Assembly: GCA_030141605.1 (NCBI GenBank)
Contig: JAQGDQ010000123.1
Coordinates: 496,001-560,000 of the forward strand
Length of the DNA stretch: 64,000 nt
Direction: 5' to 3'
Source: Tubiluchus corallicola
Lineage: Eukaryota; Animalia; Priapulida
Shown: piece after piece, positions 14,583 to 64,000 of the stretch
How the letters are laid out: the number at the start of each line of letters is the position of its first letter
Numbering within the stretch: position 1 is the stretch's first letter
The notes under the pieces: model-generated
Databases searched by the model: none
What the model saw: only the letters and a program-made list of their open reading frames with translations
Told to the model about the DNA's origin: nothing
Made by a program: the position numbers and the translations under genes

Positions 14583-15295
14583 CTAAATGAGTCTGGAGGG
14601 CTACTAAATGTGTCTAAGAAAAGTCTCACATACTAATATGTCTAGCACGGGTCTCCTATATTAAATGAGTCCATGAGGGATTACCCATACTAAATGAATC
14701 CAGGACGGGTCTCCGATACTAAAGGAGTCCAGGATGGATCTTCCAAACTAAATCAGCCCCGGTTTCTCATACTAAATGAATCCACGATGAGTCACTCATA
14801 CTAAATAAGTCCAGGATGAACCTCTCATACTAAATGAGTACAAAATGAGTCTCTTATGCCAAATGAGTCCAGGATTTCTCTTTCATATTAAATGAGTACA
14901 CGATAAGTCACTCATACTAAATGGGTACAAGATGAGGCTCTCATATTAAATGTGTCCTGGATAACTCTTTCACACTAAATAAATCCAGGATGAGTCTCTC
15001 ATACTAAGTGAGTCCAAGATGAGTTTTTGATACTAAATGAGTCGAGGATGAGTCTTTTATAATAAATTAGTCAAGGATGAGTCAGTCGAACTAAACGAGT
15101 CAAAGATGAGCGTTGCATACTAAATGAGTCCACGATAAGTCACTCATACTACATGAGTTCACGTGAGTCTCTCATACTAAATGAGTACAGGATGAGTCCT
15201 TCATACCAAATGAATCTAGGATGTTTTTTATGCTAATTGCGTCTAGGATGAGTCTCTCATACTAAATGAGTCCAGGATGGGTCAGTGATGATAAA
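14583..15295. repeat. 29-bp minisatellite, consensus ACTAAATGAGTCCAGGATGAGTCTCTCAT, about 24 copies
   Basis: ACTAAATGA-like anchors at 14771, 14800, 14829, 14858 and onward (period 29). Copies are more degenerate at the left edge. Confidence 0.92.
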
Positions 15296-21700: not shown

Positions 21701-22363
21701 GTAAAATAATGTTAGGCAAAAAGCTATACTGTTTGTTAATTCGCATCGTAAATTTCGAACATACCTCGTCAAAATCACCTCGTACTACATGAACATCACT
21801 AGCAAGTGTTTTCAAGTAATCAAAAGACTCCTTTGTGCACAGATTACCCGTGCAAAGAATGTGCTGAATCTTTCCAGGAACTAGTAGTTTCTTGAACTTT
21901 TGAGGTAGACTGTTGCATCGATGTGGAATGTGCAGGTCTCCTAATACCAACACCAACTGAAATGTTAAAAACACATTTTGCACCAGTAATAATAATAATT
22001 ATCATGTACTAATTATTATAATATTAATAATAATTATTATGTAAGAAGAATAGTGGTACTGTTCTTCTGATCAAAAAAGAACTCACTGCACACAAGTTCA
22101 TCTGGAAAGTATTGACTCTGTGTGAATGTACTTAAATTACATCACAGATAAAACTGAGAACTTGAGTGATTTACCATCTTAGTGGTGCTAACGGTAAATA
22201 ACATCTGTGGCTAATCTCAAGATTTTTATGTATCACTACTAGCTGGTGCTAAAAAAGGCCGCGGGCGATAGTACTTTTAATATAATTTTTTTAGAAAATA
22301 AGGCACATGTGAACAAAATATAATTAAAACAGGCGAATTATCTAACTAAAATAAACTCACCAT
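18762..22363 (-). CDS. VPS29: Vacuolar protein sorting-associated protein 29 (retromer/retriever subunit), 5 coding exons, 181 aa
   Basis: Exons (minus): 22361-22363 (ATG|gtgagt), 21765-21956 ([43 protein letters not shown]...GDFDE), 21483-21596 ([30 protein letters not shown]...), 19703-19824 ([36 protein letters not shown]), 18762-18876 ([34 protein letters not shown]). All introns are GT-AG, phases are consistent and the total is 546 nt. A minus-strand AATAAA lies at 17888-17893. Confidence 0.98.
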
Positions 22364-43667: not shown

Positions 43668-46600
43668 TTATGTTGTTGGCTTGTTGACTTTATAGGAGAA
43701 GACAAAGCTGACTGCATTGCCAACAGCTTGCAAATGGCTGCCCTGTAATTAGTTGCAAATAATAGTAACTTATACGTATAACTTTTTTAGTGAAATTAGA
43801 AAGACTCGTAGATTACTTTCGTCGAGATAATATTAATAATTTTAATACGATTGATGCTATTATATTGCTTATGGTGAACACAGCCAGGCATTTTATAGTA
43901 GCTAATTCTGTAAGTGGTATTTACTCTGCTTTGGCATTTAAGATCTGTTTTTATTTAATTTAAATGAGAAGTATCGTTCATTAAAATACTGGACAGCTGA
44001 ATTGGGACTTGGGAGACAAAAAGAAAAAAATGCTTAAAGTCAAATTTTGTGATCTCACCAATTTATGGTAAAGCAGTAGGGGCAGATGTTAAAGGAAAAC
44101 CAGTTCTTGAATTAACAAAATTTATTGCATTTTAATATACACTGAGAAGTACTGAATTCACCGCACAATATATGCACATAAGATGCCTTGCTTAAAAATG
44201 CAAAATAATTTTTTATGTTCCGCCAAACGAACCTCGCTGAGGACAAACACAAAAAATGATGTAAGCTGGTAAGTAACAGGAAAGCACGCTTTTCATCAAA
44301 TAGCAAAAAATGGTATTATTAATATCTACTATTATCGTGGGTAACTGATTTTATTATATAGTGGGCAATAAAGATTCATCAAACAGCAAAAAAATGGTAT
44401 TATTAATCTCTCGTTTTATGTTTTGGACTGCTTCTAAGTAATATAACAGCAAATGCAGCTGCAAAAAAGTTTGCTGAAGCACCTGGCAGGATAGGTGTTT
44501 ATACTGAACGGCAACCATATGACGTCATTTTTCATTCAAAATGAGCACCCCAAGTGTGAAATTATCATGACTTTAAATTGACTTTACTAATTGCACCAGG
44601 CTTTAAACTGAACGGCAACCATATAACGTCATTTTTCATTCAAAATGAGCACCCCAAGTGTGAAATTATCATGACTTTAAATTGACTTTACTAATTGCAC
44701 CAGGCGCCTGTAAACTAAAGCTGAAGTTACTGCTGAAACTTTCTTAACATTTTCCCCCCAAATGTTAAAATAAGTTCAACTTCCTAAAAGTCCTGATTTT
44801 TCCTTTAATGTATCCAGCATGACGCAAACAGGGCACTTTTTTTATTTTTTCGATAAGTTTTTAACCACTGATAAATTTAATGTGTGAAGCTTAAGAACGC
44901 GTCCGCCAGAAGACCATGCAAATTCGAAAAATTCCGGCACAAGGTTAGGTAAACCGATTCAGACCAAAGTTCGGGTATGAGGTCCACTAGTCACTAGTAT
45001 TCACTATGTGAATCTGCTTGGTCCAACTCCTCATAGTAGCAGAGGTACGACATAGGCCGATTTTCATGAAAAAGTGCCTATTTTTCTCTATTTTTTTACA
45101 CATATTTGAAGGATTAACCATGCAACAACCACTGAGTTTGAATAAATCTGACTCTGCACAGTATTGGGTCTTGTTATCTTCTCCAAAATGACTTTTCGAC
45201 TTTTGTCCCAAACCCCCCTCTTTCAGCTCGCATTACGCACAAGATGCAAATACTCCGTCATTTCAAAGTCTTATATCTTACCCACTGCGGGGGCGGGAAC
45301 AAAAATATCGATATGTATGTGAACAGAGCATCCCATCCCACTATGTTGCAGTGACAATTTCGATGGAGCGAATTTCCACCCTATTGTAAATGACCCTTGA
45401 AAGAGGCATGTATCAGGGTGAAAATATAGGTAACAACGTTCATCAAAAAGCTTCGTGTAGGTAACATGAGTTGTCAAATCCTGTCAAAATACTTCAAAAC
45501 GTCATAAATATTCATCTTTGGCAACTAGGGGCCTGGACAGCACATTGGTTAAACTACCGACAGGACTGGACTCTAGCATTCAAGATGGCGGCCACTGCTG
45601 GACTAAAATGTTCGTTTTCTGGGCTGTTTACCAGCGTTAAATGCGGTATTCTGACTAGTTATCCGCACAAAACGAATATTGCGAATCTGTTAGCCTGTAC
45701 TAAAGACACTGGAGCGCATTTAGAGCGCTTCCATCTTCAAAAAATGAAATATCTACGGAATGGAAATTGCTTCTTGCAGGGACTGGAAAATGTTTTATGT
45801 ACTGTTTATTTTCTATGCTTTGTAAATGTTATGTACAGGTTATTGCCTAGTTATTACTCATTGTCTTACGTAGGCGTACAAGCCAGGACACAAAGAAAAT
45901 TGCCATAAATCTGAGCGAATGCCCAAAAAGTAGGGGACAGATGGTTACCCACCTCTGGTCTCATTGACCTACAGTTATCTCATCTCTTTGTTGCAGGATG
46001 CCATTATGCAATATTGAAAGGGTCGGTTAGTTGCACAAAGTTACCCTACCTACATCTGTATATTAAGTCACTAGAGTTTCTGTGCTAAATTAAACTTTCA
46101 CTTGCACTGGCCTTTAAAAGCTTTTATCGATAAATTAACTTTTACCAAATAAAATTTACAGTAAATAATATTAATTGCTGTAAAAACATCGTTACAATAA
46201 AACTTTAATTCTCACTTGAAGAACGCAGTTCTGTATTGGTCCTTTGTAATGCTCCCACTCCATCAGTTGATCCATAGATAAGTGTTTGGCTTTCACATTC
46301 ATAGGTACCATACTGTCAATTTTGGAAGATGAAATGGCACCACATAGTTGGTCACACACGCAGTTCAGCAAGTCATGTGTAGCACAGGTTTCACTTTTCA
46401 CCAGAGTAAATAAATCCTGCGAACAATTTGTCATAACATAAAGACAGATAGGAAAATCCTATTAATAAAATACCATTAGGCATTGTTGTGGCAAGAAATT
46501 TTTAATAAAAAAGGAAATAAAAATAAATTTCATCAATAATGCAAGTATTTACACATTACCTTGTGCATTACCACATTTGTTTATGGTGTTGATGCTGCAA

Positions 46601-49600
46601 ACCAGCATATCGCACAAGCAGACTTGAATGTTTGTCTCTGATTTTCTTTAATAAACTTCAGTATATTAGCTCAAAAGTCATTGTAATAATAATAGCAATT
46701 TATTTCCTTAATACTCATGGTACAGTTCAACCAATTATGAAGTTGAAGTTTCCAATTGCTGCTTAAAAACAATTATCGTGATTGACAGTTTGTTTCAAAA
46801 TGCAGACTCACACGAGTTACTCATGCATTCCCTTTTTTACCAGAAATTCAACTGATCAAAATTTGCATATACAACCTTTAATTCCTCTTGAGAAAAAGTG
46901 ACAGTGCTGCTGCAGCTGCTGGCATCGACTATGGCACTGCTCAAGCCTTGTTTCATTACTTGCCGCTGATAAATCTTTTCTTCTATGGTGCCCTGTATAA
47001 GACAAAATAACTAACACACCTGCAAATAAATATGTAATGCAACAGTAACATTGGTTAATACATATAGACAGCTAGGTAACAGAACCATCTCAAAACAGTA
47101 TTGTAGGCCCCCAGAAAAGCAGTGTATTGGGACCCCCTACCTACACAACCATTCTGGAACAAAAATGTAAATGTCGATAAAATTAAACATATATTTATTG
47201 TATTGGTACTTCCAGTATAGTATAGTATAGCTTAGCATAGTATTTATTTATTGACAGCAAATCACAACATTCATAGATTAGCATGGGCCCGATGCACATC
47301 GAGTCCCGGGGCAACTGCCCAGCATGCCCATGCATTAGAGATGCCTCTGCCATGCAAGGCTAATAGTACAACAGTTAAAGGTCTACATTTACTAGGAAGT
47401 GAAATGTGAAAGCAGGTTTAGAGAAAACAGAATTCCTACAATTAAGCTGTTACCGAATTGAAATATTTTATAACATATTTTCCTGAAGCAAAAGGTACAA
47501 TGTAAGTACTGCCAACAAGTTGTTGGCATTTAGCAACCAACAAACAAGGATCGTGAATGCATCTTCTCAAGCGGAGCAATAAGCGGCTTCATGTAACAAT
47601 AAACCTTCGTTGTACAAAAGACTGCAGATCCCAAGTCAGATGTCACTAGAATGGTTATTTGCAATCTGCCAAGTGCTTTACAGTAAAAAAGACAATGACA
47701 CCATCCCAGACACGGACTCCATAAGTGGTCCAATGGTTGAACTGCGCAGATAGAGTACAGTATCAGGAATTAGGTCTTTACAAGTGAGAACAGGCATATT
47801 CCAAGTTTTTTCACGTACTCCCAGCCACTAATGTGAGCTACTTTTCTTGTCTAAGAGTCACACCACAAGTTGAAAAAGTGCAAGGAAAAGATTGGAAGAT
47901 TCATCTAGTAATACAACATCTACATTCATCAAGATTAAGATTATGACAGAGGTTCGGCAAAACGTTTGTCAGTAATACGGTCATGTATTTGAGTGGGCCG
48001 GCTGACACTTTAAATGAGATCCTGACCTCCCCAGACAATGTGATACTTGCTGAAAGACGATGTGATCAACCTGACAAGACGTTGTCCAGGACATGTGGGT
48101 CTCCCGCTATGATTCATCACAATTCAAATCAACAACTCTTATGCATATAAAAAGCTAACAGTGCATTTCTGTAACTATCTACATAGTAGATGACAATGAG
48201 TGCAAGTTTTCTTGAACAGCTTGAACCACTTTCTGTCTGCAGAAGCAGAGAGTGGAGTCCTTTTGTTAGACATGTACAATTGTGCAGGCATTAGTATCCA
48301 CATCATTTTACATCATTCAGTCAATTATAGGCATGACATCAATACCATGGGACACTTCCAGCACCTGTGCCATAGTGGCCAGTATGCTGTGGATGCCTGT
48401 AATAAGCAGCATGCTAGGGTTCCCCGTTTGTGCATGGTTAGTATGCATTATCATAATCTATAATTACATAATAATTCATAGGTTTTTGTTACTATTTTTA
48501 CTAGGTGGCATTTAGCTAGCATGGCACATTACTGGGAAAGGGGAGACCAGAAAAGAAAAGCAGCAACCGCTACCTGCCAATTTCATGTGACGGGCAAATG
48601 ATCCAAAAACTGTATCTAAACTAATTGCGTTATGGTTAGTAAATAAAACGATATTGTAGAAGAAAACACCTAAAAATGATTCAATCCAATTCTAAGAATA
48701 AAATTGCTTTTAAAAGACAGTAATAAAATACCACTGTGAGCAGACGATATATGTGCACTGTTCTTTTCTGTCCATCTCGCCATACACGAGCCATGGCCTG
48801 CAGGTCATTGGCCGGATTCCAGTCAATGTCGTAGAGAATAAGCCTCGAAGCTCCGATCAGGTTTAATCCTTGTCCGCCAGCTTTGCAGCTTAGTAAGAAT
48901 ACAGCTAGAATGCGAATACAACAGAATTTAATTAATAATTTATGCAAGTCATGGATCGAACTCATCGTTGACAAAGATATCAAGCAGTTTCTTCTAGTAT
49001 TAGTATTTATAAAATTTCATGTCCATAAGCTTAAATAATGATGCCAAATTTAGGTGTGTTTGAAGTGACATATACCAACAAAATTACCACCTTTTTAGCC
49101 ATTTCTAAATATGAGCAAGAATGCAAAACCAAACTACATCACGATTTCACTAACCACATAAACAACTAAAACTCTACATACTTTCTGAAGCGTTCCTGTT
49201 GTTAAACTGATCTACCAGTTCTTGCCGTCTACTGGAAGGTGTTGTCCCATCCAGTCTCAAGTAACGATAATTGCTTTTAACGCACACTTCTTGTAAAATA
49301 TCTAACGTCTAAAAACATTAACCACTTGATTACAAATACATTTCAACTGCATCGATGTACAACAAATTTAGGACGAGGTTTCTCAGGAATTTACAAAATA
49401 AACAATTTAGTGGTTGTAGTTTACAAATAGTGGTAACTTTTAACACAATTTAATTACGGTGTAACAATTAATACTCATAGTATATAGTATAATAATAAGT
49501 GCTATTAATACAATTATGAATGCATGTTTAAACTTTATTGCATTTTCTTTATGGCATATTCAGACGTCGAGACTTCTCCCGCAACTTCTCTCTGAGAGTA

Positions 49601-49947
49601 CGCCACACGTGTGAATGGTTGGCAACTTTTCTTGCAGCTTATTGCAAACCCAGAAGGAAAAGAGAAAAGTTGCACAGCAAGTTGCGAGAGAAGTTGCCAA
49701 ACCACTCACACCTGCAACTACTCTCAGACAGAAGTTGCGCAGCAAATTGCGAGATTAGTCTCTACGTCTGAACGTGCCAGTAGCATACCTCAGTATAATT
49801 TGAAACAACAACAGATTTCTCTACATTTTTGTTTGTTGCATGAAAAGAGTACAGCAAGCTAGATAACACAAGGAGTTTCCCTGAATGTTCTGCCAGTGAC
49901 ACGTGCTCTCCAGAAAACAATGACAGTATATCGTCAAAAAGGCACAA
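43668..49947 (-). CDS. RAD54B: DNA repair and recombination protein RAD54B (SNF2 family), C-terminal six coding exons (helicase-C lobe and C-terminus); 5' exons not in the window
   Basis: Exons (minus): 49789-49947 ([13 protein letters not shown]...VVVSNYTE), 49182-49308 ([27 protein letters not shown]), 48732-48904 ([56 protein letters not shown]), 46876-46992 ([24 protein letters not shown]), 46216-46416 ([25 protein letters not shown]), 43668-43742 (AVSFVF..*). GT-AG with consistent phases. YDIDWNPA and LSMxQL match RAD54B rather than RAD54L as I recall them. Confidence 0.93.
44093..44804. mobile_element. Putative non-autonomous Kolobok-type element containing a 104-bp tandem duplication
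   Basis: TTAA|AGGAAAACCAG ... CTGATTTTTCCT|TTAA (TTAA TSD, AG termini). The internal duplication 44503-44601 / 44607-44705 has one mismatch. Confidence 0.55.
49553..49778. mobile_element. Palindromic MITE (Harbinger-like GGC...GCC ends) in a RAD54B intron
   Basis: GGCATATTCAGACGTCGAGACT versus reverse-complemented end GGCACGTTCAGACGTAGAGACT. Internal inverted GCAACTTCTCTC / GAGAGAAGTTGC. TSD unclear. Confidence 0.65.
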
Positions 49948-50689
49948 CTGTATGGAATAACAGACAGCCAAAATTAATATGCCATAAGAGTAATAAAACA
50001 TAAGTTACATGCAGAAATTTAGTACAGTTAACTGTGCATGCTTGCACAGACAACAGTAATCAGAAAAATAAGGATTTTGATCAAGAAGTTGATTGACTAA
50101 GATACTAAGCTGGCGAATTCAGACTCAATTTGTGAAAGGAAATTTATCTTTTTTGAGAGGGATTACAATATTTTGTTTACGTACAGTATGTAGATTTAAC
50201 AGTACTGCTAATTTACAACAGCTAGTGTTCTTGTTGGTAAGACAAAGTTAGTTTCAATTGTAGAAAAGTCATGTTCAAGACTACAGAATGTAAAATACCA
50301 AAAGCAAAATCAACATCAGAAATCAAAATTTTATAAGACATAGACAATTTATTTTTCTTCTCTTAAGCATAATGCAACAAATCAACAATTGACTGGATGT
50401 ATGTTCCTTCCATTTCAGGACTGTGAATTTATAACGATATCATTTTGAAGTAACTTTAAAAAAAATAAAATCTATAATACTAACTAACATGTACCTAATA
50501 ATAGGCCCAGATCTATAATAAAGTCACAGGAAAAAAGTCACGGAAAAAGCCACAGTTCTGGCTAAGGTCAGGGTTAGGGTTATTTTTTTTCCAATGCATT
50601 TTGTCAGCAACTTTTTTACCTGGGATCAGATAACCAGTAATGATAGTAATGCTAGTTGTTACAGTAGTCAGCTATAAGACTAGATCTTA

Positions 50690-51300: not shown

Positions 51301-52092
51301 CTTTTATCATTTGTCTGGGAATAGTTTGTTCATCTAGCCCTGTGTTTAGCTACAACTCTGGCAAAGATGTAGTAATCGGTAATTTATGCTACGTATCGTC
51401 CATTGTTAAAGATCCAACATGCCAGATAATACAGAAACAATTTGTATAACGACTATAACACAAAGCATGGTAAATGAGCAAGCATTCAGTAACTCAGCGA
51501 GCGTCTGCTTGTACAGTGAATGAGGCGCATGCGCATTTTTCCCACGATCTTGTGCTGATAGGCAAGCCTGTTCGAGTGCTTGTTGCTGGAGCTGATGTAC
51601 AAAGGAAAAGTACGGCAGAAAATATTGCCCTCAACGCGAAGCACAATGTAGCAATGAATGATTTCAGTGAATTAGTTGAGGAACGTACTGATCATTACAA
51701 AACGAATCGGAGAATCATCATGTGAAAGAAATTGCCACAAATACCTTCAGTAATGCAAGTTATGAAGATTACGAACCGGCTGTGCCGAGGAGCTTAATGA
51801 ATGGAAAGCAGTTCAAACGCAATTCGATACTCGGGTAAGACGTATTACAAACATATTCGCTCCGCCATATTGACCCCATACTAATGCGATAAATTAGTTA
51901 AGGACTGCAATTAGAAACGTTTTTTCCAATAACAAGAAACGTCTTATGATACAACAAAAAATTGCTATACGGGAAGAATGTAGCAACATAGTTTATGAGA
52001 CATTGAGTTTAATTTAATAAATGTACCGGCAGTCCATAAATGCAAGTACATTTTTGGTGGGGAGGGGGTTTGAATCTCTCCAAACTTAGATC

Positions 52093-52311
52093 GTGAGAAA
52101 CAATTTTAAGTTGAGTGTAAGAGTGAAGTCATGTGAAAGAAGCTTTTCAAAGCTTAAACAAACCAAAAACTGCTTGCGATCCACAATGGAACAGTCAAAG
52201 CTATCTGATCTTTCGGTTTTATCTGTTAAAATTGACTTAGCAAAAGTAATTGATTTTGATGAAGTAATTGACAACTTTGCAGCAGTGAAATCCAGGAATG
52301 GAAAGTTCTGA
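52093..52311 (+). pseudogene. hAT transposase C-terminal dimerisation-domain fragment (ZMYM1-like)
   Basis: SCERSFSKLKQTKNCLRSTMEQSKLSDLSVLSV...IDFDEVIDNFAAVKSR matches the hATC signature (ERSFSxLKxxKxxLRSTMxQxRLxxL). Confidence 0.85.
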
Positions 52312-52801: not shown

Positions 52802-53626
52802 TAGGGCAACTGTATATATATATATATAGACATAAATTTAAACACGCCTAACACCCAGATCAATATATTATATAAAAGTAGAGACATAAGTTAAAAACAT
52901 TAAGCAGGGATTTTAATGGGTTATGAGGAAAACAAAAGTAAAATCATTTGAAAATATTTATTTAATACCGAAAATGGAGAAATATTATGATTATTTAATA
53001 ATTACATTTGGGATATTTTCATCAAAAGGATCTGAGAAAAGAAAATACAATTATTCATAAAGTTACTAGTAAGAACCCGTAAGAAGGTAGTAAAAATGCA
53101 TTTTTATCACGAAATTTGAAAATGAACTAAATACGCCACGGGGGACAAAATTATCAAATATGGGACATGTCCTGTATATAAGGGACGTCCAGCAACCCTA
53201 ACCCTAGCGAAGCCCCTGTTCACCAGACAGGCACACCTTAGACGTAGATATTTTTCTTCTCCGTCAGTATATGATTAAATTATTCGTGAGGCAAACAAAT
53301 AATAAATTTATTTAGGAGATGGGCTAGGAAAGAGCTCAATGAACAACTTTTAGCTCCTTTGATGATTTTCAAAATTTATAGTAATTCTTTTCAATGGAAG
53401 GCATCTGTTACATAATAGCAAAATGTTTACTACAACAATGTTGTGAGATACATAAGTTATTAATAACATCCTAGCATTTTAGGAATAACTCATCATTTAA
53501 ATTTTTGACAGGACAAAGTTTATAGGCTTCAAAGTAAAATATCCTCTAAAATCTAATAAATCTTAACAATTTTATGCATACTAAAACTGCTGTGATGCCC
53601 AGGTATTGCCTTTTCCACAGTTTTTG

Positions 53627-53710: not shown

Positions 53711-55478
53711 GGCGGTTGTGACAGGATCTGGCAAAGGATTCTGTGATAATCAGGAATTATCAAGGATAATCCTTTAGATGAAACAGTGAATTGGCAGAAG
53801 TGTCTCAGCCCGGTTGGGAAGATGAATACACTCCCTGAAGGAGATAAGCAGCCCGAATCAGTGTAGTAAGTGAAACAGTTTAAAGTTCATATAGAATCCA
53901 GTGGTCATCTATATCGCATTCACTGACCAGTGCTAGGTTGCGGAGTTGAGCCTAAAAGCACATCAATGTGGGTTCCTGATTGATGAAAGTCGACCCCAAA
54001 CCTGACTCTTGAGGCCTGACTCCCAGAAGTTCTTAAAATTTTGATTTTTGAGGCATTTTATTAACCAGACTCAAACCATTAGATGATAGATATTATATTA
54101 TGAACCTTAAGTAAAGGTACTGCTTAATATTTATGTTTAAGGCAGGAGTATTTTATTATCAACAGACTGTGGCTTTTCTTTACCTGAAGATCTAATCAGC
54201 AAAACATTAGAACCAATGGAATTTTAAATGCATTGTTTTAAGCTGCAGACCCTGCATTGATCAGCTTCAGTATTGTTTAATTTTACTTATCTAAGCATAT
54301 GCCATTATAATTCGGCTATCACCCTTGCCACAGAGATACTAAAAAGTATTATTATACTGTATTAATAGCATGTAATTATATAAAAATAACTTCCTGAAGT
54401 TTTTCTAGACAATAAAAGAGTAGCTATAAATTGTTGATATTATGATTTATAAATTATTGAACATGTTTTATTTGTTTTGACTTAAAGATTTGAAAGACAT
54501 GGGGAAGCATTTTGCAATTTTTTAACTCATTATCATTGAATATTAGAGCTACATTTATAGCCGAATGACTGTTATAAGTCTGTTGCTACTAAGCTTTAAT
54601 TATCTGACTTTTTTGGTGAAACAGTTGTCTTAGCTATCAAAACTGACTAATTTGTTGCTAAAATAGAACATGTGACAGCAATTTTTGCAAAAAGTTAAAA
54701 GTCAAATGAAAACTAACATGAGAAAACGAATAATTTTTAAGAACAAGAAACAAAGCCATTAGAAGTGCTATTTAGTACACCGCTGTGCGCTATCTTCCGA
54801 TATGATTTATTGAAGACATTTTATTTTGTTTTCCAAACTCTTAGCATCGACTAAGCACGGCATCGAATTGCACCAAGGAAATTCTGTCCTTTTGTCCGTT
54901 ATGCTACAGATTTTGTTATGTTACTTTTGTTTTCTATATTATTGTGTTATGGTTTTGAAGTAGTTTTGCAAGGTTGTCTCTCATACCAGTTCAGTTCTTT
55001 GGTGTCTTGATCATCTTAGGCGTGTATTTTTTGTTGCCTCAGATGTGAGATATCAAAAGCCGACAATATACCTTTAGTCTGTTCCCGCAAAATTCAGTTA
55101 CTTTTTTAGTCACTTTTCGATTTATACATGCCCATTAAAAAATTTTACGAAACGAAATTGTGTAAATACATGGCAACAATTTCAAAATAGAAAGCATGAA
55201 TTTTTTTTACTCGAGAGAGGTACTCTGACTTTTCAGACTCAGAAATAAACACTTGTACTTCAATTACTTGTGTTGGATAAGTAATCCATGTTGTTTATGT
55301 TGGGAATTAGGGTTATGATTCTATTTAATTTTACTGTAGCATTATTCTTCGAGAAAAATCATTATTTAATGTTTTTAATCTCGAATTTTATATTAGTTAA
55401 AGTTAACGTTTTATTCACAGGTGAACAATTTGATGCTAGGAAAGCAAGTGAATAGTCTGCACAATCCCTTGTTCAATC

Positions 55479-58400
55479 ATGAATGCTTATGAAATGAACG
55501 AAGAGCTGCAAGCTGCCATTGAACAGTTAGAACTTGAGCAAATCGATCTGTGTGGAGAGCAGGCTGGCGAAAGCTCTATTTCAGAACTGGTTTATACTAA
55601 CAGCATCAAAAATATTACTAGCAGCGTAACAGATGTGGGCTCAGTACAGCAGCAGCAAGCAGGCAGTCAGACTCGTTCAGCTGTGACTCATGCTACGTAT
55701 CAGCAGCAGGCTCTATCCAGAATAAATGAGTTTAATGTCAGCCTTGAGCTTATGAATACAGCCTGCGTTGATAGTAGAGATGGTTTGTGTGCGCTGGGTA
55801 CCGGGACCGCTGTAAAAGATTTTGTCACTTTGGACGAATTCCAAGCTCTGCAGCAGAATCAAATGAAAGAATCATTTTCTGCTAGTGGGTTACTAGAGAG
55901 TTTAAACAATAATGAAATAACTAATGGTACACCAGAGCATTTAGACAATAATGAAAATGTTTTTGACACTCTACAGAGTGAAGGGTACATTGAAACTGCT
56001 ATTGATTCATTAGGGACATTAGAGAATAACGACGTTGCTGTGACTATTGGCAGCAATGCATTAGATATAAATCTACTGCCGTTCAGCCAGCAAGACTCAG
56101 ATCATTCGTTGTCTAGGCAACAACACACTACTTCACAAAAAGTAGAAATCAATAAGCAATATGAATTGGATCTGCCCATAGAAGATGTTACGGAGCAACG
56201 TCTTGCTAGTGATGTTACCAAGCAGATGTGCAGTGATTATGGTATTGATGTGAAATTCAGTGTGGAAAATTTTACAAGTATGCCTGTAAATAATCAGGAT
56301 AATGACTTGAATCGTGATATAGATGATTCTGATTCTGATTCTTCAGATTCAGATTCTAATTCTGACGACTTTGATAATCAGGACAGTATTCAGAATTCAG
56401 TTGCTCCTTTAAATGAAAAAACTTCTGATAGCATAATTAATGGTTCGGTTTTCGAACGCAATGAAGCTAAAGTGATAAGTGGTTTTCCCATTAGTCTAAA
56501 CAGTGATAATGTTGAACAATTACAAGTAGAATGTAAAATCACAAATTCTCCAGTAAATATTGAAGAATGTCAAAAATACACAATAGAAAATTCCTGTAAG
56601 ACGATCTTATTCAAAACTGATGAACAGTGTGAATGTCTCGACTGTGGTGCATCACTGAGTAATCTTCTGAGTTCACAAGAACATCTTGGATTAATGACAG
56701 CCGTTGTGAAGTTGTGTACATGCTTACAGGAAGGTAGAAAATGTTTACATTATGCAAATGAAGTAAGCACCTCTAAGTTACATGTGAGTGAACTATACAG
56801 TTGTCATATGTGTGAAATAACTTTTCACAGACTGTCTGCATTAACAAATCACATGGTTATGAAACATAATGATGAGGACTCAACTGACAATCAAAGTGTT
56901 GCTGCTAATTACATACAACCACCTGCTAGTTTGCAAAAGACCCATAAATGTGGAATTTGTCCAGCTTCATTTTCCAATGTTTTTAATTTGCAAAAGCATG
57001 GTAGAGTTGTTCATAGTGCAATACCAAAACAGTATCGATGTACTAAATGTACTGCTTCTTTTCAAGCCTTGAAGAATTTAACATTACATCTTCGGCTTCA
57101 CGAAAATGAGCAGCAGTCATTTGAGTCTCAGCGAATAGATAAAATAGCGACAAAAACCCCAACAGCAGGAACTGATGAAGCCAGTAAGCCTGATCAAGCT
57201 AGTAAGCCTGACAGTATTGACAAAATACCAGTGAATGGCATTAAGAAGGCTGGGAATACAGATGAGAAATCAATAAAGTGTAGAATGTGCCCGGCTGCAT
57301 TTAAACATACAGCAAGCCTTAAAAGGCACATACAAATCACTCATAACAAGATAAAAATGTATTCATGCAAACTCTGCCCAGCTAGATTTGGAGTTAAATC
57401 AACAGTTAAAAAACATATGAGTGATGTGCATGGGGGTGTGCCTAAAAAGTATAAATGTCAACATTGTACTGCTTCATACAGAGCCCTGAAGAATTTGCAG
57501 CGGCACATGAAACTTCATATTGCTAAATTACAGCCTGTACAGGAAAAAAAGAAAAACCAGTACCTCTGTTTTTTGTGTAGCACAAGATGTTCATCAGCGG
57601 ATGTTCTTAAAGAACATATTAAAACCCACTCTGAGACGAAAGAGCCAACGGCAGATATAACAACTACACCAAGAAAAGCACTTCTGAAGATATTTAAGTG
57701 TAATGTCTGCTCAGTTAGTTTTCACAGTCGACTAGACAGGGATGTGCATTTGCAAACTGCTCATGAGAAGGCAAAATCAACACCTGAGCAACAAAACAGT
57801 AGCTTGGATTCCAGTATATGCAGGGTATGCAAAAACAGTTTTAATTCTAAAGCTCTCTTGGACCAGCACATGAAGCAGTATAAGAAGCTGTATGAGTGTA
57901 ATGCTTGCCCTGCTATGTTCAAAGTATCCACTAACAGAAATAAACACGTGAATAATGTGCATTCTGGTGCATTAAAGGCTTTCCGATGCGATGTTTGTGG
58001 AGGTGGATTTCACAGAGAATATAGCTTGCAAAGCCACATGCTACTGCATAATCAAGCCCACAAAGAGCAATATAAGTGTGATAAGTGTGATTTCAATTGT
58101 AATTCGTCAGAACAGCTGAAGACTCATATCATTTGCAAGCATTCAGTAACTGCACAAAGTCCTGGAATTATCATAATGGACACTCCAACTGTAAGCCTGC
58201 AAAAAATCAAAGTAGAAGATTCACATGCCGAGGCTATTACTATTCAGGAGTCTGCAGACATGGATTTTTGTGAAGATATGGAGCACTGTTGTGACATTTG
58301 TGGAAAGTTTTTCATGAAAGAGTCAGAGTTACTAGTACATGAAAAAGTACACATGGCACTAAAACCTTATAAATGTGGAATTTGTGGTCTAGACTTTTGT

Positions 58401-61400
58401 GACATGAGTACACTTGACATCCACCAAACATCACATACCAACAAGTCATATGAAGCATACACAAAAATGGTTGCCGAGACTTCAAATTCAAGCTGCTATG
58501 TTGACTTCCAAAATATTGGTATGCGAGAACTACACAGCAGTGGTAATGAAAATCTTAGTAATGAGAGAAAAGTGCCATTTGGGAAGAAAAGAGAAAGAGT
58601 TTATGAGTGTGACACGTGCAAGAAAGTCTTCAAAGATGGAGGAACTCTGAAAGTTCATAAGCGCATACACACAAACGAAAGGCCATACATTTGTCACATT
58701 TGTCAAGCAACATTCAGACAACACCACCATCTAGTCAGACATGTAGCAAGCCATAGTGATGATAAACCATTTTCTTGTGATGTGTGCGGAAAAAGATTCA
58801 AATTAAGCGAATACCTCACAACACACAAGGCTGTGCATTCACAGGCTAAGAAATTCAAATGTGGAGTATGCGGCAAAGATTTTCGCCTATACAGCGATTT
58901 GAGAGCTCATCAGAAAGTTCATGCATCAAAAAACGCAAAGACTGATGGTATGTTTGACAATAAGCTTGCTTTTGATAGTCATGATACTAGTCACTCTAGG
59001 CTTAAACCCCACAAATGTCCCGTTTGTAAGAACGGTTTTAAAGTGGTTCGCCACATGAAAATTCATTTGTGGTCACATTCTAAGAACAATATGCACTATT
59101 GTCTCACTTGCGGAAAAAAATTTCAATCTCAAGTTGGCTTAGCTGTCCACAAAAGAATTCACATTGTAAAAAAAGAACTTGAAGAGGTTGTGAATGCAAG
59201 CACTAACTTGACGCAGTACGTGACCAGCACTAGTAAAGGTAAACAGTACCAATGTCCCGTATGTGAAGTGAAATTTGCACAGTCTACCTATCTGAGTGTA
59301 CACTTGCGAGTTCACACAGGCGAGAAGCCATATAAGTGTGAGGTTTGCAATAGTCGTTTTCGACAAAGAGCCCATCTTAAATGTCACATGTTCACTCACA
59401 CAGACCACAAACCTTTTTCTTGCAAAATATGTGCTGCATCTTTTAAGCAACTTTCAGCTTTAAAAAAACATGGTTTAGTACACACTGACTTAAAGCCATA
59501 CAAATGTGATTCTTGTAGTGCAGAATTTGCACAATCAACCGACTTGCTAAATCACATTATGGTACATAACGAAAATAGACCCTATACTTGTCAAACTTGT
59601 TTCGCTACATTTAAAACTGAATCATTCTTCAATAGCCACATTAAAGTACACACCCATCTTAAACCTCACGTTTGTGATGAATGTGGAAAAGACTTTCGAA
59701 TCGCTGCAAATCTAACAGTTCATAAGAGAACTCACTCTAACGAAAAGCCATACCAGTGTCAAATCTGCTCAAAGCGATTTAAACAAACAGGACACTTGAA
59801 AGTTCATTTGTCAATACATGCAGACTCGAAACCATATAAATGTGATTCTTGTGGTGCCAGTTTTAGGCAACCAGGAAACTTAAAGAGTCACCAAACCGTT
59901 CACACAGATGAAAGGCCACATGTATGTGACATTTGCCAATCAGCTTTTAAAACGTTTAGTTATTTGCAAAGCCACAAGCGAATACATACAGATTTGCGTC
60001 CATATAGCTGTACATGTGGAAAAACATTTAAAACACCAGATGGATTGAAAGCGCACGAGAAAACTCACACAGATGAAAAGCCATATGAATGTCGCCATTG
60101 TCATGCACGCTTTAAGCAGCAGCCTCACCTCAAAACTCATCTACTTACACATAGTACTCACAAACCTTATTGCTGTGACACTTGTGATGCACGCTTTAAA
60201 CAGTCATCCCACTTGAAAGTTCACATGGCTGTTCATAGCGATGTGCGACCATTTCCTTGTCATATTTGTGGTGCGGCATTTAAAACATCAACTTCACTCA
60301 GTAGTCATAAGCGCATTCACACGGACCTGAAGCCATATGTATGTGACGTATGCAACAGAGCCTTTAAATTTTCGGAAGGACTAAAATCTCACAAGAAAAC
60401 ACACTCAGCTGACAAACCTTTTTCATGTGACCAGTGTGGAGCATGTTTTAAGTTGGCTGGTTATCTCAAAAGCCATATGCTAGTTCACACTGAAATACGA
60501 CCCTATTGTTGTTCTACATGTGGAGCTACTTTTAAAACAGCCAGTTACCTCCATAACCACAGCAAAATTCACACAGACATTCGACCTCATATTTGCCACA
60601 TTTGTGGAAAAGGTTTTAAAATGTCATCAAACTTGCGAGCTCATGCACGAACTCATTCAAACGAGAAACCATATTCTTGTGACCAATGCTCTGCACAGTT
60701 TAAGCAAATTGCTCATTTAAAGATGCATGTCAGAACTCATTCTGATTTGAAACCCTATAAATGTGATTCCTGCGAATCTCGTTTCCGACAGTCTGCGCAT
60801 TTAAAAGTTCACATGGCTGTTCACACTGAATCACGACCATTTGCTTGTGAAATTTGTGGAGCTGCATTTAAAACACAATCATCATTAAACTCACACAAGA
60901 AAATCCATACAGACATTAAACCTCATTCATGTGATGTATGTGGGAAATCATTCAAATTTGCTGTTGGATTAAAAACTCACAGGCGAATTCATACAAATGA
61001 GAGACCTTTCTCTTGCGATACATGCCATGCTAGTTTTCGACAGGCTGGCAATTTGAAAAGTCATATGGCAGTGCATACAGATGTTCGACCGTACGCATGC
61101 CCAACATGTCAAGCTGCCTTTAAAACATCATACTATCTCCAGAATCACATTAGAATACACACGACTGCTCGTCCATTTCAATGTGATGTCTGTGAAAAAT
61201 CTTTTAAATTTAAGGAGGGATTACAATCTCACAAAAAGACACACACAAATGAACGCCCATTTGAGTGCGATACATGCCATGCACGATTCAAGCAAGCTGC
61301 TTATCTCAGAAGTCACATGCTTGTACATTCAGATGAAAGAAATCATTTTTGTGACATTTGTGGATCAGCTTTTAAAACTGCTGTTTATCTTGCCAATCAT

Positions 61401-64000
61401 AGGCGCATTCACACTGATATGAGACCATACAAATGTGATATTTGTTACAAGGATTTCAAGCTGCCCGATGGCTTAAAGGCACATAAGAAGACACATTCCG
61501 ATGAAAAACCATACTCGTGTAATATATGTGGTGCAAAATTCCGGCAAACAGCCCACGTAAAGGCACACATGTTAACCCATTCAGATGCTAAACCTTATAA
61601 GTGTGACACCTGTGATGCTTGTTTTAAGCAGTCAGCTCACTTAAAATCACATCTTGCTGTACACAGTGAAGAAAGAAAGTACTCATGTGATATTTGTTAT
61701 TCTGCTTTTAAAACATCTACTGCTCTAAACAGTCATAAAAGAATACATACTGATATAAAGCCTTATATATGTGCTACATGTGGCAATGCTTTCAAAACAC
61801 CAGACGGATTGAAATCTCACCAGATTAGTCATATGGATGAACGTCCGTTTGAATGTGATACATGTCATGCTAAATTTAAGCAATCCACAAACTTGAAATA
61901 TCACATGGTGGTGCATTCGGAAGAAAGAAATTATACATGTGATATATGTGACTCTGCTTTTAAAACTATGGCATATCTTACCACACATAAGCGTATTCAT
62001 ACAGAACTGCGTCCATACATTTGTGAATGTGGAAAAGACTTCAAGACACCTGATGGACTGAAATTGCATAAACGTACACACACAGGTGAGAAGCCATACT
62101 TCTGCAGTTTATGTGGTATGAGATTCAGGCAGTCAGGACATCTTAAATGTCACATGCAAACTATACATTCCGATTCTAAGCCATTTAAATGTGACACATG
62201 TGATGCATGTTTTAAACAGTCAGCAAACTTGCGCAGCCACATGGCCGTACATTCTGATATTCGTCCTTATCCATGTCCTATTTGTGAGGCCACTTTTAAA
62301 ACATCTACTTCATTAAGCAGCCATAAACGAATACACAGTGATATTAAACCACACATTTGTGACGTATGTGAAAAAGCATTTAAAACATCAGAAGGACTGA
62401 AGTCACACAAACACTCACACACAGATGCTAGACCCTTTGAGTGTGATACATGCCATGCCAAATTCAAGCAAGCAGGAAATTTAAAGAGCCACATGGTAGT
62501 GCATACTGAAGAACGTCCATGGACTTGTGATGTTTGTGAAGCCTCCTTTAAAACACAAGCATACCTTCATAGTCACAAACGTATCCACACTGATATAAGG
62601 CCTTACATTTGTGAATGTGGAAAAGATTTTAAAACACCCGATGCATTAAAACTTCATAAACGTACACATAGTGATGAAAAACCGTACGCTTGTGAAATTT
62701 GTCATTCAACATTTAAGCAGCTTGCCCATGTACGAGTTCACATGGCTACACATTCTGATCTCAAGCCATATAAATGTGACACTTGTAGTGCTAGCTTCAA
62801 GTTGGCAGCATATTTGAAAACCCACATGATTGTTCACACTGAAGAAAGACCATGGATATGTGACGTTTGCCAAGCTGCTTTTAAAACGTCTAGTTATCTT
62901 AGCTCACATAAGAAAATTCACACAGATTTGAGACCATACATTTGTGATCAGTGTGGAAAAGACTTCAAGCTTCCTGATGCCCTGAAACTTCACAAGAGAA
63001 CACATTCAAATCTAAGACCGTTTTCATGTGATGTATGTGGTCAGAAATTTCGGCAAACTGCACATGTTAAAGCACACATGCTTACGCATTCAGATTCAAA
63101 ACCATTCAAATGTGATACTTGTGATGCTTGTTTTAAACAGTCCGGGAATTTGAAATCTCATATGACAGTACATTCTGATGTTCGGGCTTACTGTTGCCCC
63201 ATATGCGGAACAGCTTTTAAAACAACCACATCATTAAACAGTCACAAACGGGTTCACAGTGACATTAAGCCTCATATCTGCTCCACTTGTGGCAAAGCTT
63301 TTAAAACTAGAGAAGGGCTAAAGTCACACAAATACACACACACAGATGAACGTCCATTTGCATGTGATACATGCAGTATGAGTTTTAAGCAATCCTCCAA
63401 TTTAAAAAGTCACATGATTGTGCATACTGATGTAAGACCACACGTTTGTGATATATGTCAGGCAGCTTTTAAAACAGTTAGTTACCTCACTAGTCATAAA
63501 CGAATTCACACAGATTTGAGACCATATAACTGCGAAATATGTGGAAAAGATTTCAAGTTACCAGATGGATTGAAACTCCATAAACGAATACACACCAATG
63601 AAAAACCTTTCTCGTGTGATACATGTCAAGCTGCCTTCAAGCAGTCTGCTCATCTCAAAGTTCATATGACAGTTCATACAGACGAGAGAAATCACATTTG
63701 TGATATATGTGAATCAGCTTTTAAAACTGCATCATACCTAGCCATTCATAAAAAAACACACAGTGATGTAAGACCTCATATCTGTGATATCTGTGGCAAG
63801 GGATTCAAGTTTACAGATGGGCTGAAAGCTCATAAAAAGACTCATACATCTGAGAAGCCATACCAATGTGAGATATGTTTTAGACGATTTCGACAAGGAG
63901 GACATTTAAAAATACATCTTCTTACACATTCTGACTCAAAACCTTTTAAATGTGACACATGTGATGCATGTTTTAAACAGTCTGGCCATTTAAAGGTTCA
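55479..64000 (+). CDS. Giant poly-C2H2 zinc-finger protein, single coding exon, >2840 aa, at least 77 fingers; runs off the window end
   Basis: ATG at 55479 (MNAYEMNEELQAAIEQLELEQ...), preceded by an acceptor TTTATTCACAG at 55420 and an in-frame TGA at 55422. Manual translation found no stop up to 64000 (ends ..FKCDTCDACFKQSGHLKV). The ORF track lists nothing in this frame, consistent with an ORF lacking a stop. Architecture: ~439-aa acidic N-terminus, 20 scattered fingers (56796-59160), then 57 tandem fingers with TGEKP-like linkers (TDERP, SDLKP, TNEKP) from 59247. Confidence 0.96.
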   Translation, partial: MNAYEMNEELQAAIEQLELEQIDLCGEQAGESSISELVYTNSIKNITSSVTDVGSVQQQQAGSQTRSAVTHATYQQQALSRINEFNVSLELMNTACVDSRDGLCALGTGTAVKDFVTLDEFQALQQNQMKESFSASGLLESLNNNEITNGTPEHLDNNENVFDTLQSEGYIETAIDSLGTLENNDVAVTIGSNALDINLLPFSQQDSDHSLSRQQHTTSQKVEINKQYELDLPIEDVTEQRLASDVTKQMCSDYGIDVKFSVENFTSMPVNNQDNDLNRDIDDSDSDSSDSDSNSDDFDNQDSIQNSVAPLNEKTSDSIINGSVFERNEAKVISGFPISLNSDNVEQLQVECKITNSPVNIEECQKYTIENSCKTILFKTDEQCECLDCGASLSNLLSSQEHLGLMTAVVKLCTCLQEGRKCLHYANEVSTSKLHVSELYSCHMCEITFHRLSALTNHMVMKHNDEDSTDNQSVAANYIQPPASLQKTHKCGICPASFSNVFNLQKHGRVVHSAIPKQYRCTKCTASFQALKNLTLHLRLHENEQQSFESQRIDKIATKTPTAGTDEASKPDQASKPDSIDKIPVNGIKKAGNTDEKSIKCRMCPAAFKHTASLKRHIQITHNKIKMYSCKLCPARFGVKSTVKKHMSDVHGGVPKKYKCQHCTASYRALKNLQRHMKLHIAKLQPVQEKKKNQYLCFLCSTRCSSADVLKEHIKTHSETKEPTADITTTPRKALLKIFKCNVCSVSFHSRLDRDVHLQTAHEKAKSTPEQQNSSLDSSICRVCKNSFNSKALLDQHMKQYKKLYECNACPAMFKVSTNRNKHVNNVHSGALKAFRCDVCGGGFHREYSLQSHMLLHNQAHKEQYKCDKCDFNCNSSEQLKTHIICKHSVTAQSPGIIIMDTPTVSLQKIKVEDSHAEAITIQESADMDFCEDMEHCCDICGKFFMKESELLVHEKVHMALKPYKCGICGLDFCDMSTLDIHQTSHTNKSYEAYTKMVAETSNSSCYVDFQNIGMRELHSSGNENLSNERKVPFGKKRERVYECDTCKKVFKDGGTLKVHKRIHTNERPYICHICQATFRQHHHLVRHVASHSDDKPFSCDVCGKRFKLSEYLTTHKAVHSQAKKFKCGVCGKDFRLYSDLRAHQKVHASKNAKTDGMFDNKLAFDSHDTSHSRLKPHKCPVCKNGFKVVRHMKIHLWSHSKNNMHYCLTCGKKFQSQVGLAVHKRIHIVKKELEEVVNASTNLTQYVTSTSKGKQYQCPVCEVKFAQSTYLSVHLRVHTGEKPYKCEVCNSRFRQRAHLKCHMFTHTDHKPFSCKICAASFKQLSALKKHGLVHTDLKPYKCDSCSAEFAQSTDLLNHIMVHNENRPYTCQTCFATFKTESFFNSHIKVHTHLKPHVCDECGKDFRIAANLTVHKRTHSNEKPYQCQICSKRFKQTGHLKVHLSIHADSKPYKCDSCGASFRQPGNLKSHQTVHTDERPHVCDICQSAFKTFSYLQSHKRIHTDLRPYSCTCGKTFKTPDGLKAHEKTHTDEKPYECRHCHARFKQQPHLKTHLLTHSTHKPYCCDTCDARFKQSSHLKVHMAVHSDVRPFPCHICGAAFKTSTSLSSHKRIHTDLKPYVCDVCNRAFKFSEGLKSHKKTHSADKPFSCDQCGACFKLAGYLKSHMLVHTEIRPYCCSTCGATFKTASYLHNHSKIHTDIRPHICHICGKGFKMSSNLRAHARTHSNEKPYSCDQCSAQFKQIAHLKMHVRTHSDLKPYKCDSCESRFRQSAHLKVHMAVHTESRPFACEICGAAFKTQSSLNSHKKIHTDIKPHSCDVCGKSFKFAVGLKTHRRIHTNERPFSCDTCHASFRQAGNLKSHMAVHTDVRPYACPTCQAAFKTSYYLQNHIRIHTTARPFQCDVCEKSFKFKEGLQSHKKTHTNERPFECDTCHARFKQAAYLRSHMLVHSDERNHFCDICGSAFKTAVYLANHRRIHTDMRPYKCDICYKDFKLPDGLKAHKKTHSDEKPYSCNICGAKFRQTAHVKAHMLTHSDAKPYKCDTCDACFKQSAHLKSHLAVHSEERKYSCDICYSAFKTSTALNSHKRIHTDIKPYICATCGNAFKTPDGLKSHQISHMDERPFECDTCHAKFKQSTNLKYHMVVHSEERNYTCDICDSAFKTMAYLTTHKRIHTELRPYICECGKDFKTPDGLKLHKRTHTGEKPYFCSLCGMRFRQSGHLKCHMQTIHSDSKPFKCDTCDACFKQSANLRSHMAVHSDIRPYPCPICEATFKTSTSLSSHKRIHSDIKPHICDVCEKAFKTSEGLKSHKHSHTDARPFECDTCHAKFKQAGNLKSHMVVHTEERPWTCDVCEASFKTQAYLHSHKRIHTDIRPYICECGKDFKTPDALKLHKRTHSDEKPYACEICHSTFKQLAHVRVHMATHSDLKPYKCDTCSASFKLAAYLKTHMIVHTEERPWICDVCQAAFKTSSYLSSHKKIHTDLRPYICDQCGKDFKLPDALKLHKRTHSNLRPFSCDVCGQKFRQTAHVKAHMLTHSDSKPFKCDTCDACFKQSGNLKSHMTVHSDVRAYCCPICGTAFKTTTSLNSHKRVHSDIKPHICSTCGKAFKTREGLKSHKYTHTDERPFACDTCSMSFKQSSNLKSHMIVHTDVRPHVCDICQAAFKTVSYLTSHKRIHTDLRPYNCEICGKDFKLPDGLKLHKRIHTNEKPFSCDTCQAAFKQSAHLKVHMTVHTDERNHICDICESAFKTASYLAIHKKTHSDVRPHICDICGKGFKFTDGLKAHKKTHTSEKPYQCEICFRRFRQGGHLKIHLLTHSDSKPFKCDTCDACFKQSGHLKV

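Follow-up and report, generated by a model that had tools for sequence, protein, structure and literature searches.

The 64,000 nucleotides (nt) of Tubiluchus corallicola DNA analysed here (contig JAQGDQ010000123.1, positions 496,001 to 560,000; referred to as the window and numbered from its first letter) end in one large coding exon, which encodes a protein with a very long array of C2H2 zinc fingers. The exon is directly preceded by a pyrimidine-rich AG at 55419-55420, a candidate splice acceptor. It contains an open frame of 2849 codons (55452-63998), which runs off the end of the window. The first ATG of the frame is at 55479 and an in-frame stop (55449-55451) lies ahead of it. In a relative, represented by a contig of run X5, the match ends upstream of 55398, and an upstream coding exon joined by alternative splicing is possible.

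The encoded protein can be divided into three regions: an acidic N-terminus, a set of scattered fingers and an unbroken finger array (Table 1). A Pfam search with residues 1-440 gave no family (no KRAB, SCAN, BTB, SET or ZAD), and a PR/SET domain was matched neither in the frame nor in the 74 other open reading frames of 70 or more residues in the window. Membership of the KRAB, SCAN, BTB or ZAD families was rejected, as no such effector domain was found in residues 1-440. Over the whole frame, Pfam gives zinc-finger families only, with zf-C2H2 at an expect value (E) of 8e-249. Here, 75 complete C2H2 fingers were parsed, 19 of which are scattered and 56 unbroken. They satisfy the classical tandem (Kruppel-type) pattern, C-x2(4)-C-x12-H-x3(5)-H with conserved Phe and Leu, and the His spacing is 3 throughout the array fingers with one exception.

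From finger 23 onwards (Cys at 59505; ZF24 in the sequence-only reading of this DNA), the fingers fall into four classes, A to D, which follow one another in a strict order. The spacing from one A finger to the next is 4,4,3,4,3,3,4,3,4,3,4,4,3,3,4 fingers, with a mean of 3.53, and the classes A, B and C are represented by 15 fingers each and D by eight. The sequence-only reading had given the order as ABCD ABCD ABC ABCD ABC ABC ABCD ABC, continuing with ABCD ABC ABCD ABCD ABC ABC ABCD and a partial A at 63951, and the parse matches this exactly. Every helix quoted in that reading was found in the array, as were the YICECGKDFKTPD fingers at 62016 and 62604, which lie 588 nt apart. The contigs of run X1, which is possibly the window's own source, are colinear and of even depth across the array, so that there is no sign of assembly collapse or expansion.

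The classes emerge without labels. Average-linkage clustering at k = 5 recovers all four for 52 of 53 fingers, with finger 24 forming a singleton. Leave-one-out nearest-neighbour assignment is correct for 51 of the 53 using all columns, for 49 using the helix alone and for 50 using the non-helix columns alone, and mean identity is 55-60% within a class and 35-47% between classes. On a tree of the individual fingers, the labels change three times, which is the minimum; the mean for shuffled labels is 28.8 and none of 200 shuffles is equally low. The tree has three deep groups, comprising C (support 99/99), A plus D (98/97) and B, and D is nested within A (83/77). As it was built on 28 columns with a bootstrap that had not settled, its finer forks are rough. 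The four position-specific classes proposed earlier are thus separated by clustering, whereas the tree resolves three groups with D inside one of them; judged from these sequences, D is a class derived from A. Seven separate finger clades were also considered and rejected, as the tree did not recover them.

Above the level of the module lies a longer unit. Finger identity peaks at lags 3, 4, 7, 10, 11, 14, 17, 18, 21 and 24, of which the peak at lag 7 is strongest (z 6.8, reached by none of 2000 order shuffles), and lag 2 is depleted (z -4.6). The direct repeats are spaced at multiples of approximately 84 nt. At the nucleotide level, the diagonal at lag 11 is the best preserved. The whole unit D-A-B(S/A)-C-A-B(Y)-C, named after the residue at +3 of its B fingers, occurs in five copies, as two adjacent pairs and one alone. 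The cassettes are 59-72% identical to copy 4, and they form homologous multi-finger blocks in register within one protein. Most of the pairs are older than the published cut-off for an array duplication (five edits per finger). The proposed seven-finger (588-nt) super-repeat holds in that the unit recurs and lag 7 dominates; it is, however, quasi-periodic among modules of three and four fingers, and a strict 588-nt period was rejected since the array mixes 3s and 4s. The predicted structure of copy 4 has seven canonical beta-beta-alpha fingers with a predicted local distance difference test score of 83.5, while the arrangement of the fingers relative to one another is without confidence (predicted template modelling score (pTM) 0.33, from an alignment of only five rows). 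A fold search with this model returned ordinary finger-DNA complexes, and the likeness to TFIIIA in the PDB is generic only.

Possible traces of how the modules were joined persist within the classes. C fingers (p 0.004) and linkers show a sub-class signal, which is absent from the bodies of A and B (p 0.33 and 0.42). B fingers of the Ser/Ala type at +3 occur within D-A-B-C-A in five of five cases, as against two of ten for the Tyr type, which otherwise lies in modules followed by D (8/10 precede C-D; hand-calculated p 0.007). An A finger that follows C carries a D-like linker and one that follows D does not (linker test, p 0.0004). This is expected if mispairing between A and D joined the linker of one to the finger of the other.

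The chemistry of the fingers is unusual in a class-wise manner. Controls for this comparison were the finger proteins returned by the protein searches made here, which are biased to long vertebrate arrays. Arg and Lys are absent from positions -1, +3 and +6 of all 53 fingers (control median, 18%). Instead, A and D have Gln at -1 and mostly Asn or His at +3, B has an invariant Thr at -1 with Tyr or Ser at +3, and C has Gly or Ala at +3 and retains the canonical basic scaffold residues. Basic residues occupy position +9 in none of the 15 A fingers, in all 15 B fingers, in 12/15 C and in 1/8 D (controls, 78%). The second residue past the second Cys, where the hairpin Lys contacts phosphate, is basic in 14/15 C fingers and in none of the 15 A or 15 B fingers (controls, 87%). 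By contrast, position -2 is basic (Lys) in 52/53 fingers as against 15% in controls, and the net charge is +1.75 per finger. The linkers keep the seven-residue length and the T/S-x-x-K/R-P-Y/F pattern, yet the Gly of the TGEKP type is present in only 1/53, mostly replaced by Asp, Asn or Glu (control median, 85%).

In engineered helices, Gln at -1 specifies a 3' A, Thr at -1 a 3' T, Asn at +3 a middle A, His at +3 a middle G and Ser or Ala at +3 a middle T, while a 5' G pairs with Arg at +6, which is absent from this array (PMC3607563). In Table 2 of that paper, Gln-1/Asn+3 goes with GAA, Gln-1/His+3 with AGA, TGA or GGA and Thr-1/Ser+3 with GTT. By this code the array is predicted to bind AT-rich, low-information sites. 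With n for any base, A would read nAA or nGA, D would read nGA and B would read nTT or nnT. The readers would thus be A, D and in part B. Class C, with Gly at +3, would read little and may act as a backbone anchor or as a spacer, and spacer fingers are known from CTCF and other proteins (PMC10484683). The residue at +9 docks a finger on the next (PMC6040777), and as A and D lack Arg there, a hinge in the chain would be expected after each finger of these two classes.

The duplications that gave rise to the modules are old. Between same-class fingers, the proportion of differing silent sites (pS) is approximately 0.8 and that of replacement sites (pN) is 0.27, and four-fold sites are 38% identical (564/1479) as against 35% at saturation. 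Silent sites between modules are thus near saturation. A slight excess of residual codon identity persists (0.498 versus 0.478 in shuffles, z 3.1; lag 11, z 3.0). There is also one 38-nt exact repeat between two A fingers (Table 1). An exact match of this length arises in 2/500 codon shuffles, and the depth of the run X1 contig is doubled at 63945-63982; a single short and recent gene conversion probably accounts for the repeat. Beyond this patch and the slight residual codon identity, concerted evolution was rejected as an ongoing process. Growth by duplication of multi-finger cassettes, as had been proposed from the sequence, is supported by the lag profile, the repeats and the tree. This process is already established for C2H2 proteins (PMC1553488, PMC13541613).

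Present-day change in the array is almost wholly silent. The copy in run X5 is approximately 94% identical and colinear over the array pieces covered. Over 210 codons (60650-61275), with 40 of the 44 listed differences classed, there are 38 synonymous changes and two conservative changes outside the helix. This gives a ratio of replacement to silent rates (dN/dS) of 0.011 (0.014-0.021 uncorrected, with varied transition weights), an upper 95% bound of 0.05-0.07 and, by hand calculation, a value of approximately 0.04 if the four remaining differences are all replacements. Among the differences shown, none of the 28 contact codons (-1, +2, +3 and +6) of cassette copy 2 changes its residue. The N-terminal fingers at 56860-57440 have 14 synonymous and 20 replacement changes (34/35 shown) and a dN/dS of 0.35-0.5, and the change types of the two regions differ (Fisher p 3e-7); both ratios come from single contigs of this one run. 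The N-terminal region itself is approximately 15% divergent from X5 over 56407-56809, and indels near 55694 and 55778 keep the frame in net. The very low dN/dS shows that the array is functional where tested. It would also argue against the chase of a fast-evolving satellite or transposon. As same-class fingers are approximately 40% different and yet hardly change now, each copy was probably tuned individually and then frozen.

The divergence among runs is itself uneven. Over 55300-64000, runs X5 and X6, labelled as the species of X1, are approximately 4-15% different from the window and X4 is nearly identical. This pattern suggests that a single species label covers cryptic species or populations with deep splits. 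Four further X5 contigs with array sequence diverge by only 4-6%; they are colinear and contain a single insertion, 3 nt long and in frame. Three short pieces of run X6, possibly an RNA run, fall on the array, which does not amount to evidence of expression. No contig of X4, X5 or X6 reaches across the whole array. The silent divergence of X5 is approximately 2.5-fold apart between two intervals: pS is 0.09-0.12 at 56823-57502 (N-terminal fingers, depth 15) and 0.21-0.29 at 60584-61425 (array, depth 6.7). The one joint in X5 where the strand switches (59846/60485, depth 2.6) is likely an assembly chimera and was disregarded.

Table 1. Features of the window. Cassettes have the form D-A-Bs-C-A-By-C, with Bs for Ser/Ala-type and By for Tyr-type B fingers.
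Feature	Position	Strand	Remarks
Large coding exon	55421..64000	+	At least 8.6 kb, open at window end; start inferred from sequence
Acidic N-terminal region	55479..56798	+	440 residues, net charge -50
Fingers 1-19	56802..59162	+	Single or in groups of 2-4; outside class code
Unbroken array	59253..64000	+	Fingers 20-75 (56 complete) and partial finger 76, cut by window end
Class-coded part	59484..64000	+	Fingers 23-76; 15 complete A-B-C(-D) modules
A-finger starts	59505, 59841, 60174, 60426, 60762, 61014, 61266, 61602, 61854, 62190, 62442, 62775, 63111, 63363, 63615, 63951		
Cassette copy 1	60069..60656	+	Fingers 30-36
Cassette copy 2	60657..61244	+	Fingers 37-43
Cassette copy 3	61497..62081	+	Fingers 47-53
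Cassette copy 4	62082..62669	+	Fingers 54-60
Cassette copy 5	63006..63593	+	Fingers 65-71
38-nt exact repeat	62184..62221 and 63945-63982	+	Joins A fingers 55 and 76, at a distance of 21 fingers
RAD54-like SNF2 helicase exons	46195-50004	-	Best PDB match zebrafish RAD54-like, E 3.5e-24
VPS29-like gene, spliced	19700-21998	-	Pfam: metallophosphoesterase fold only
Broken reverse-transcriptase fragment	11964-12693	+	Two frames; likely non-LTR (long terminal repeat) retroelement
Tandem array, 58 bp (base pairs)	372-975		
Tandem array, 29 bp	14602-15283		
Tandem array, 30 bp	33770-34364		
Weak hAT dimerisation-domain match	52090-52308		E 0.003, below cut-off
Short telomere-like repeat	53170-53215		Near 53196

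The window has a G+C content of 29-39% and also carries other genes and repeats. The RAD54-like gene is represented by its C-terminal ATPase lobe only. Its N-lobe gave no motif or Pfam match on the minus strand between 50 and 55.5 kb, and a motif scan to 64 kb gave none, so that the zinc-finger exon probably lies antisense within one of the introns of the RAD54-like gene, unless that gene is incomplete. The spliced gene with the metallophosphoesterase fold is a putative VPS29 gene. The hAT-like match and the telomere-like repeat are possibly transposon remnants.

How the array compares with known finger proteins was assessed from the controls and from protein searches. The longest unbroken array among 426 control proteins has 41 fingers as against at least 56 here, and the copies of control arrays are 65-87% alike at their best lag as against 48% here. 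Only 3/219 controls lack Arg and Lys at -1, +3 and +6, one of them being the gecko protein P0241. Profiles of the classes score at best a mean of 2.7 bits on 368 control proteins, compared with 21.4 bits for the window fingers in a leave-one-out test. Ortholog searches returned generic finger proteins, with at most 41% identity among proteins of 1562-4970 residues (best 120 of 1453) and at most 45% among those of 230-734 residues (best 120 of 2298); shorter and intermediate lengths were covered by the profile search alone (1.84 billion proteins; best 150). In that profile search, P0075 (1645 residues, 36 fingers) ranked fourth. Its best of 4760 finger pairs is with window fingers 14-15, and it has similar helices and 3% Arg/Lys at the contacts, but it differs in having TGEKP linkers, 35% identity and mostly negative class scores. 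P0075 is a possible distant relative of the window protein; as an ortholog it is not established (order match z 1.1, own periodicity p 0.08-0.11), and a search with P0075 itself gave no clear ortholog among the best 120. The favoured explanation is that the window encodes a lineage-restricted poly-C2H2 protein.

The closest parallels are in organisation. Human array duplications (ZNF775 and ZNF721, among 140 proteins) likewise place homologous sub-arrays of 3-8 fingers within one protein (PMC13541613), with multi-finger duplication units and long arrays in one exon (PMC13541613, PMC1553488), and the duplicated arrays of ZNF775 are likewise old and conserved (PMC13541613). Unlike these, the protein described here has at least 15 modules in one unbroken array of 56 or more fingers, whose classes follow a strict order; its linkers are not of the TGEKP type, its contact sites are free of Arg and Lys, and it has neither KRAB nor SCAN. 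ZFX, ZFY and ZNF711 share with it an acidic N-terminus and conserved position-specific classes in scaffold and helix (PMC11030341). Their period is 2 over 13 fingers as against 3/4/7 over at least 53 fingers here, with no sequence relationship shown, and membership of that family was rejected since the even/odd two-finger repeat with alternating His spacing is not found.

A gecko (Heteronotia binoei) KRAB-bearing protein, P0241 (LOC132571818), has 41 uninterrupted fingers in three recurring helix classes and mixed module lengths, with a lag-12 period (z 6.8). Like the window array it has Tyr, Asn or Ser at +3 and no Arg or Lys at -1, +3 and +6. It differs in its KRAB, in its mostly TGEKP linkers and in copies that are 76% alike at the best lag as against 48% here (same columns); homology between its classes and those of the window is not shown. 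P0302, P0095, P0241 and P0303 are giant finger proteins with clear higher-order helix repeats, and they include one of 5807 residues in which multi-finger blocks recur and one from octopus that repeats an Arg-free block of five fingers. PRDM9-type proteins also carry a long single-exon tandem array, which is a homogenised minisatellite with hypervariable contact residues. A PRDM9-like identity was rejected, as there is no SET match, the fingers are not homogenised (38% four-fold identity) and the contact residues are frozen in the stretch compared. 'Second-order' finger repeats in Xenopus are a further parallel and ZNF384-type binders of A-tracts may be another; literature support was found for neither.

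The A-B-C(-D) order likely stems from old in-register duplication of a three- to four-finger module. An ancestral A-B-C unit would have acquired D by the copying and divergence of its A finger. One module with D and one without it would then have fused into the seven-finger cassette, which would have been copied several times, and the 10- and 11-finger variants would stem from further gain or loss of D. Here, mispairing between like fingers would keep the order automatically. The saturated silent sites between modules, together with the almost wholly silent change of the present, point to a history in which the modules duplicated, diverged and then froze.

As to function, we lean towards modular, avid binding of the array to AT-rich DNA, a reading that we regard as having about an even chance of being correct. 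Many overlapping sub-arrays of three to seven fingers would bind, instead of one continuous periodic site being occupied. On long AT-rich stretches, avidity would come from the many related modules, which would also allow alternative registers on many related sites; the acidic N-terminus would be the effector region. This is favoured because in human proteins duplicated sub-arrays bind related sites and long arrays usually engage their sub-arrays alternately (PMC13541613). Several observations weigh against it. The 21-mer predicted as a site is not enriched in the window, with 16 sites at one mismatch as against 12.3 +/- 3.6 after shuffling. Conservation within a class is poor at +2 (0.29) and +6 (0.32), while +10, +8 and the beta-hairpin carry a class signal equal to that of -1 and +3. 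The recognition code comes from engineered modules of three to six fingers with TGEKP linkers, and class A, which lacks two canonical basic residues, could bind DNA weakly or not at all. Furthermore, loose binding to AT-rich DNA would not seem to require constraint as strict as a dN/dS near 0.01 across every residue; that value comes from one contig (depth 6.7) of one run and from 7.5 of the 56 fingers, and the X5 array contig could be a full-length paralog.

The sequence-only reading had gone further, proposing that the array is made for a ligand with a period of 9-12, 21 or 30 bp. Such a ligand is neither shown nor required, as in-register duplication keeps the A-B-C order without selection. 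Scanning of satellites with the predicted site, as that reading had suggested, gave no 21-mer match within two mismatches in the 30-bp and 29-bp arrays of the window, which at 64 kb only is a weak test; the 58-bp array has one predicted site at one mismatch and four at two. The strongest form of the idea is a phased reader of periodic nucleic acid (a long repeat, a satellite or curved, AT-phased DNA), with like fingers on one face of the helix and the alternation of three and four itself under selection. The mean of 3.53 fingers per module corresponds to approximately 10.6 bp, which is suggestive of one module per helical turn, and the drift from a phase of 3.5 is at most one finger over 15 modules, although 255 of 6435 orderings do equally well. 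In neutral simulations, a single four-finger seed gives equal phasing in only 0-3.5% of runs. When seeded with seven-finger units, however, duplication gives it in 0-40%, depending on block size (maxima of 23% for one unit and 40% for two), and history alone may thus explain the phasing. The persistence of class-specific residues at -1 and +3 despite saturated silent sites fits such a reader, as does the recognition of alpha-satellite sequences by duplicated sub-arrays of human ZNF721 (PMC13541613). The 55-60% identity of same-class fingers does not suggest the homogenisation that a single repeated ligand would favour, strong purifying selection would fit fast-evolving satellites badly, and the 30-bp and 29-bp satellites lack a match. 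Continuous wrapping by 50 or more fingers is also sterically demanding. Taken together, a phased reader is improbable. Less probable again is the notion of a molecular ruler for the DNA helix, in which one AA-reading head per turn would be set along at least 160 bp, with hinges after A and D and with C as anchors; if true, phased A/T tracts (curved, nucleosome-positioning or satellite DNA) would be read as a long-range shape code, not as a motif. The literature searched, with most subscription journals outside it, contained no paper on this protein or on helical phasing of three and four fingers.

Two further accounts dispense with specific reading of DNA by the whole array. The array may mainly bind RNA or protein, or form a repeated scaffold, the classes then reflecting finger packing or a repeated surface, which we consider rather unlikely. 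The near-total amino-acid freeze and the class signal away from the contact positions would suit it, as would the lack of Arg and Lys at base-contact sites, the non-canonical linkers, the A fingers without canonical basic residues and the helix ends, which are hydrophobic in A and D and basic in B and C; protein binding has been proposed for the ten repeated fingers of ZFX, ZFY and ZNF711 (PMC11030341). Nevertheless, residues typical of base reading, namely Gln or Thr at -1 and Asn or His at +3, are maintained class by class, the array keeps a net positive charge and has an additional Lys at -2 in 52/53 fingers, Arg-free contact sets also occur in P0241 and in two cephalopod proteins, and the model shows no confident packing between fingers (pTM 0.33; five-row alignment). 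Alternatively, the periodicity could be a mere fossil of growth, with a few fingers doing specific work and a module order without function. Consistent with this, 11 of 23 control arrays of at least 20 fingers are periodic (p<0.01), array duplications are found in 140 human proteins (PMC13541613), and the last three fingers of ZFX suffice for DNA binding (PMC11030341), in coexistence with its conserved two-finger repeat. Dispensable fingers would not be expected to be so frozen, however, and 7.5 fingers in the middle of the array have a dN/dS of approximately 0.01-0.02, with the four further X5 array contigs colinear at 4-6% divergence; the fossil account is therefore unlikely, at the same level as the phased reader. 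Modular, avid binding of AT-rich DNA remains the reading that we favour.

Cassette duplication is already known, and what is unusual in this protein is the length of the array, its age, its freeze and the way in which basic residues sort by class. The array bears on why very long zinc-finger arrays exist and on whether the fingers in their middle matter. Long arrays in which cassettes are visible are mostly young, with near-identical copies; the present array is old and frozen in its middle. With 15 natural replicates of A, B and C and eight of D, each class having its own residue pattern, it is a clean test object. If phase matters, the array would read DNA across many turns of the helix, a mode of reading new for a protein. 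If phase is irrelevant, the array would be a well-documented case of duplication, divergence and freezing in an Arg-free array.

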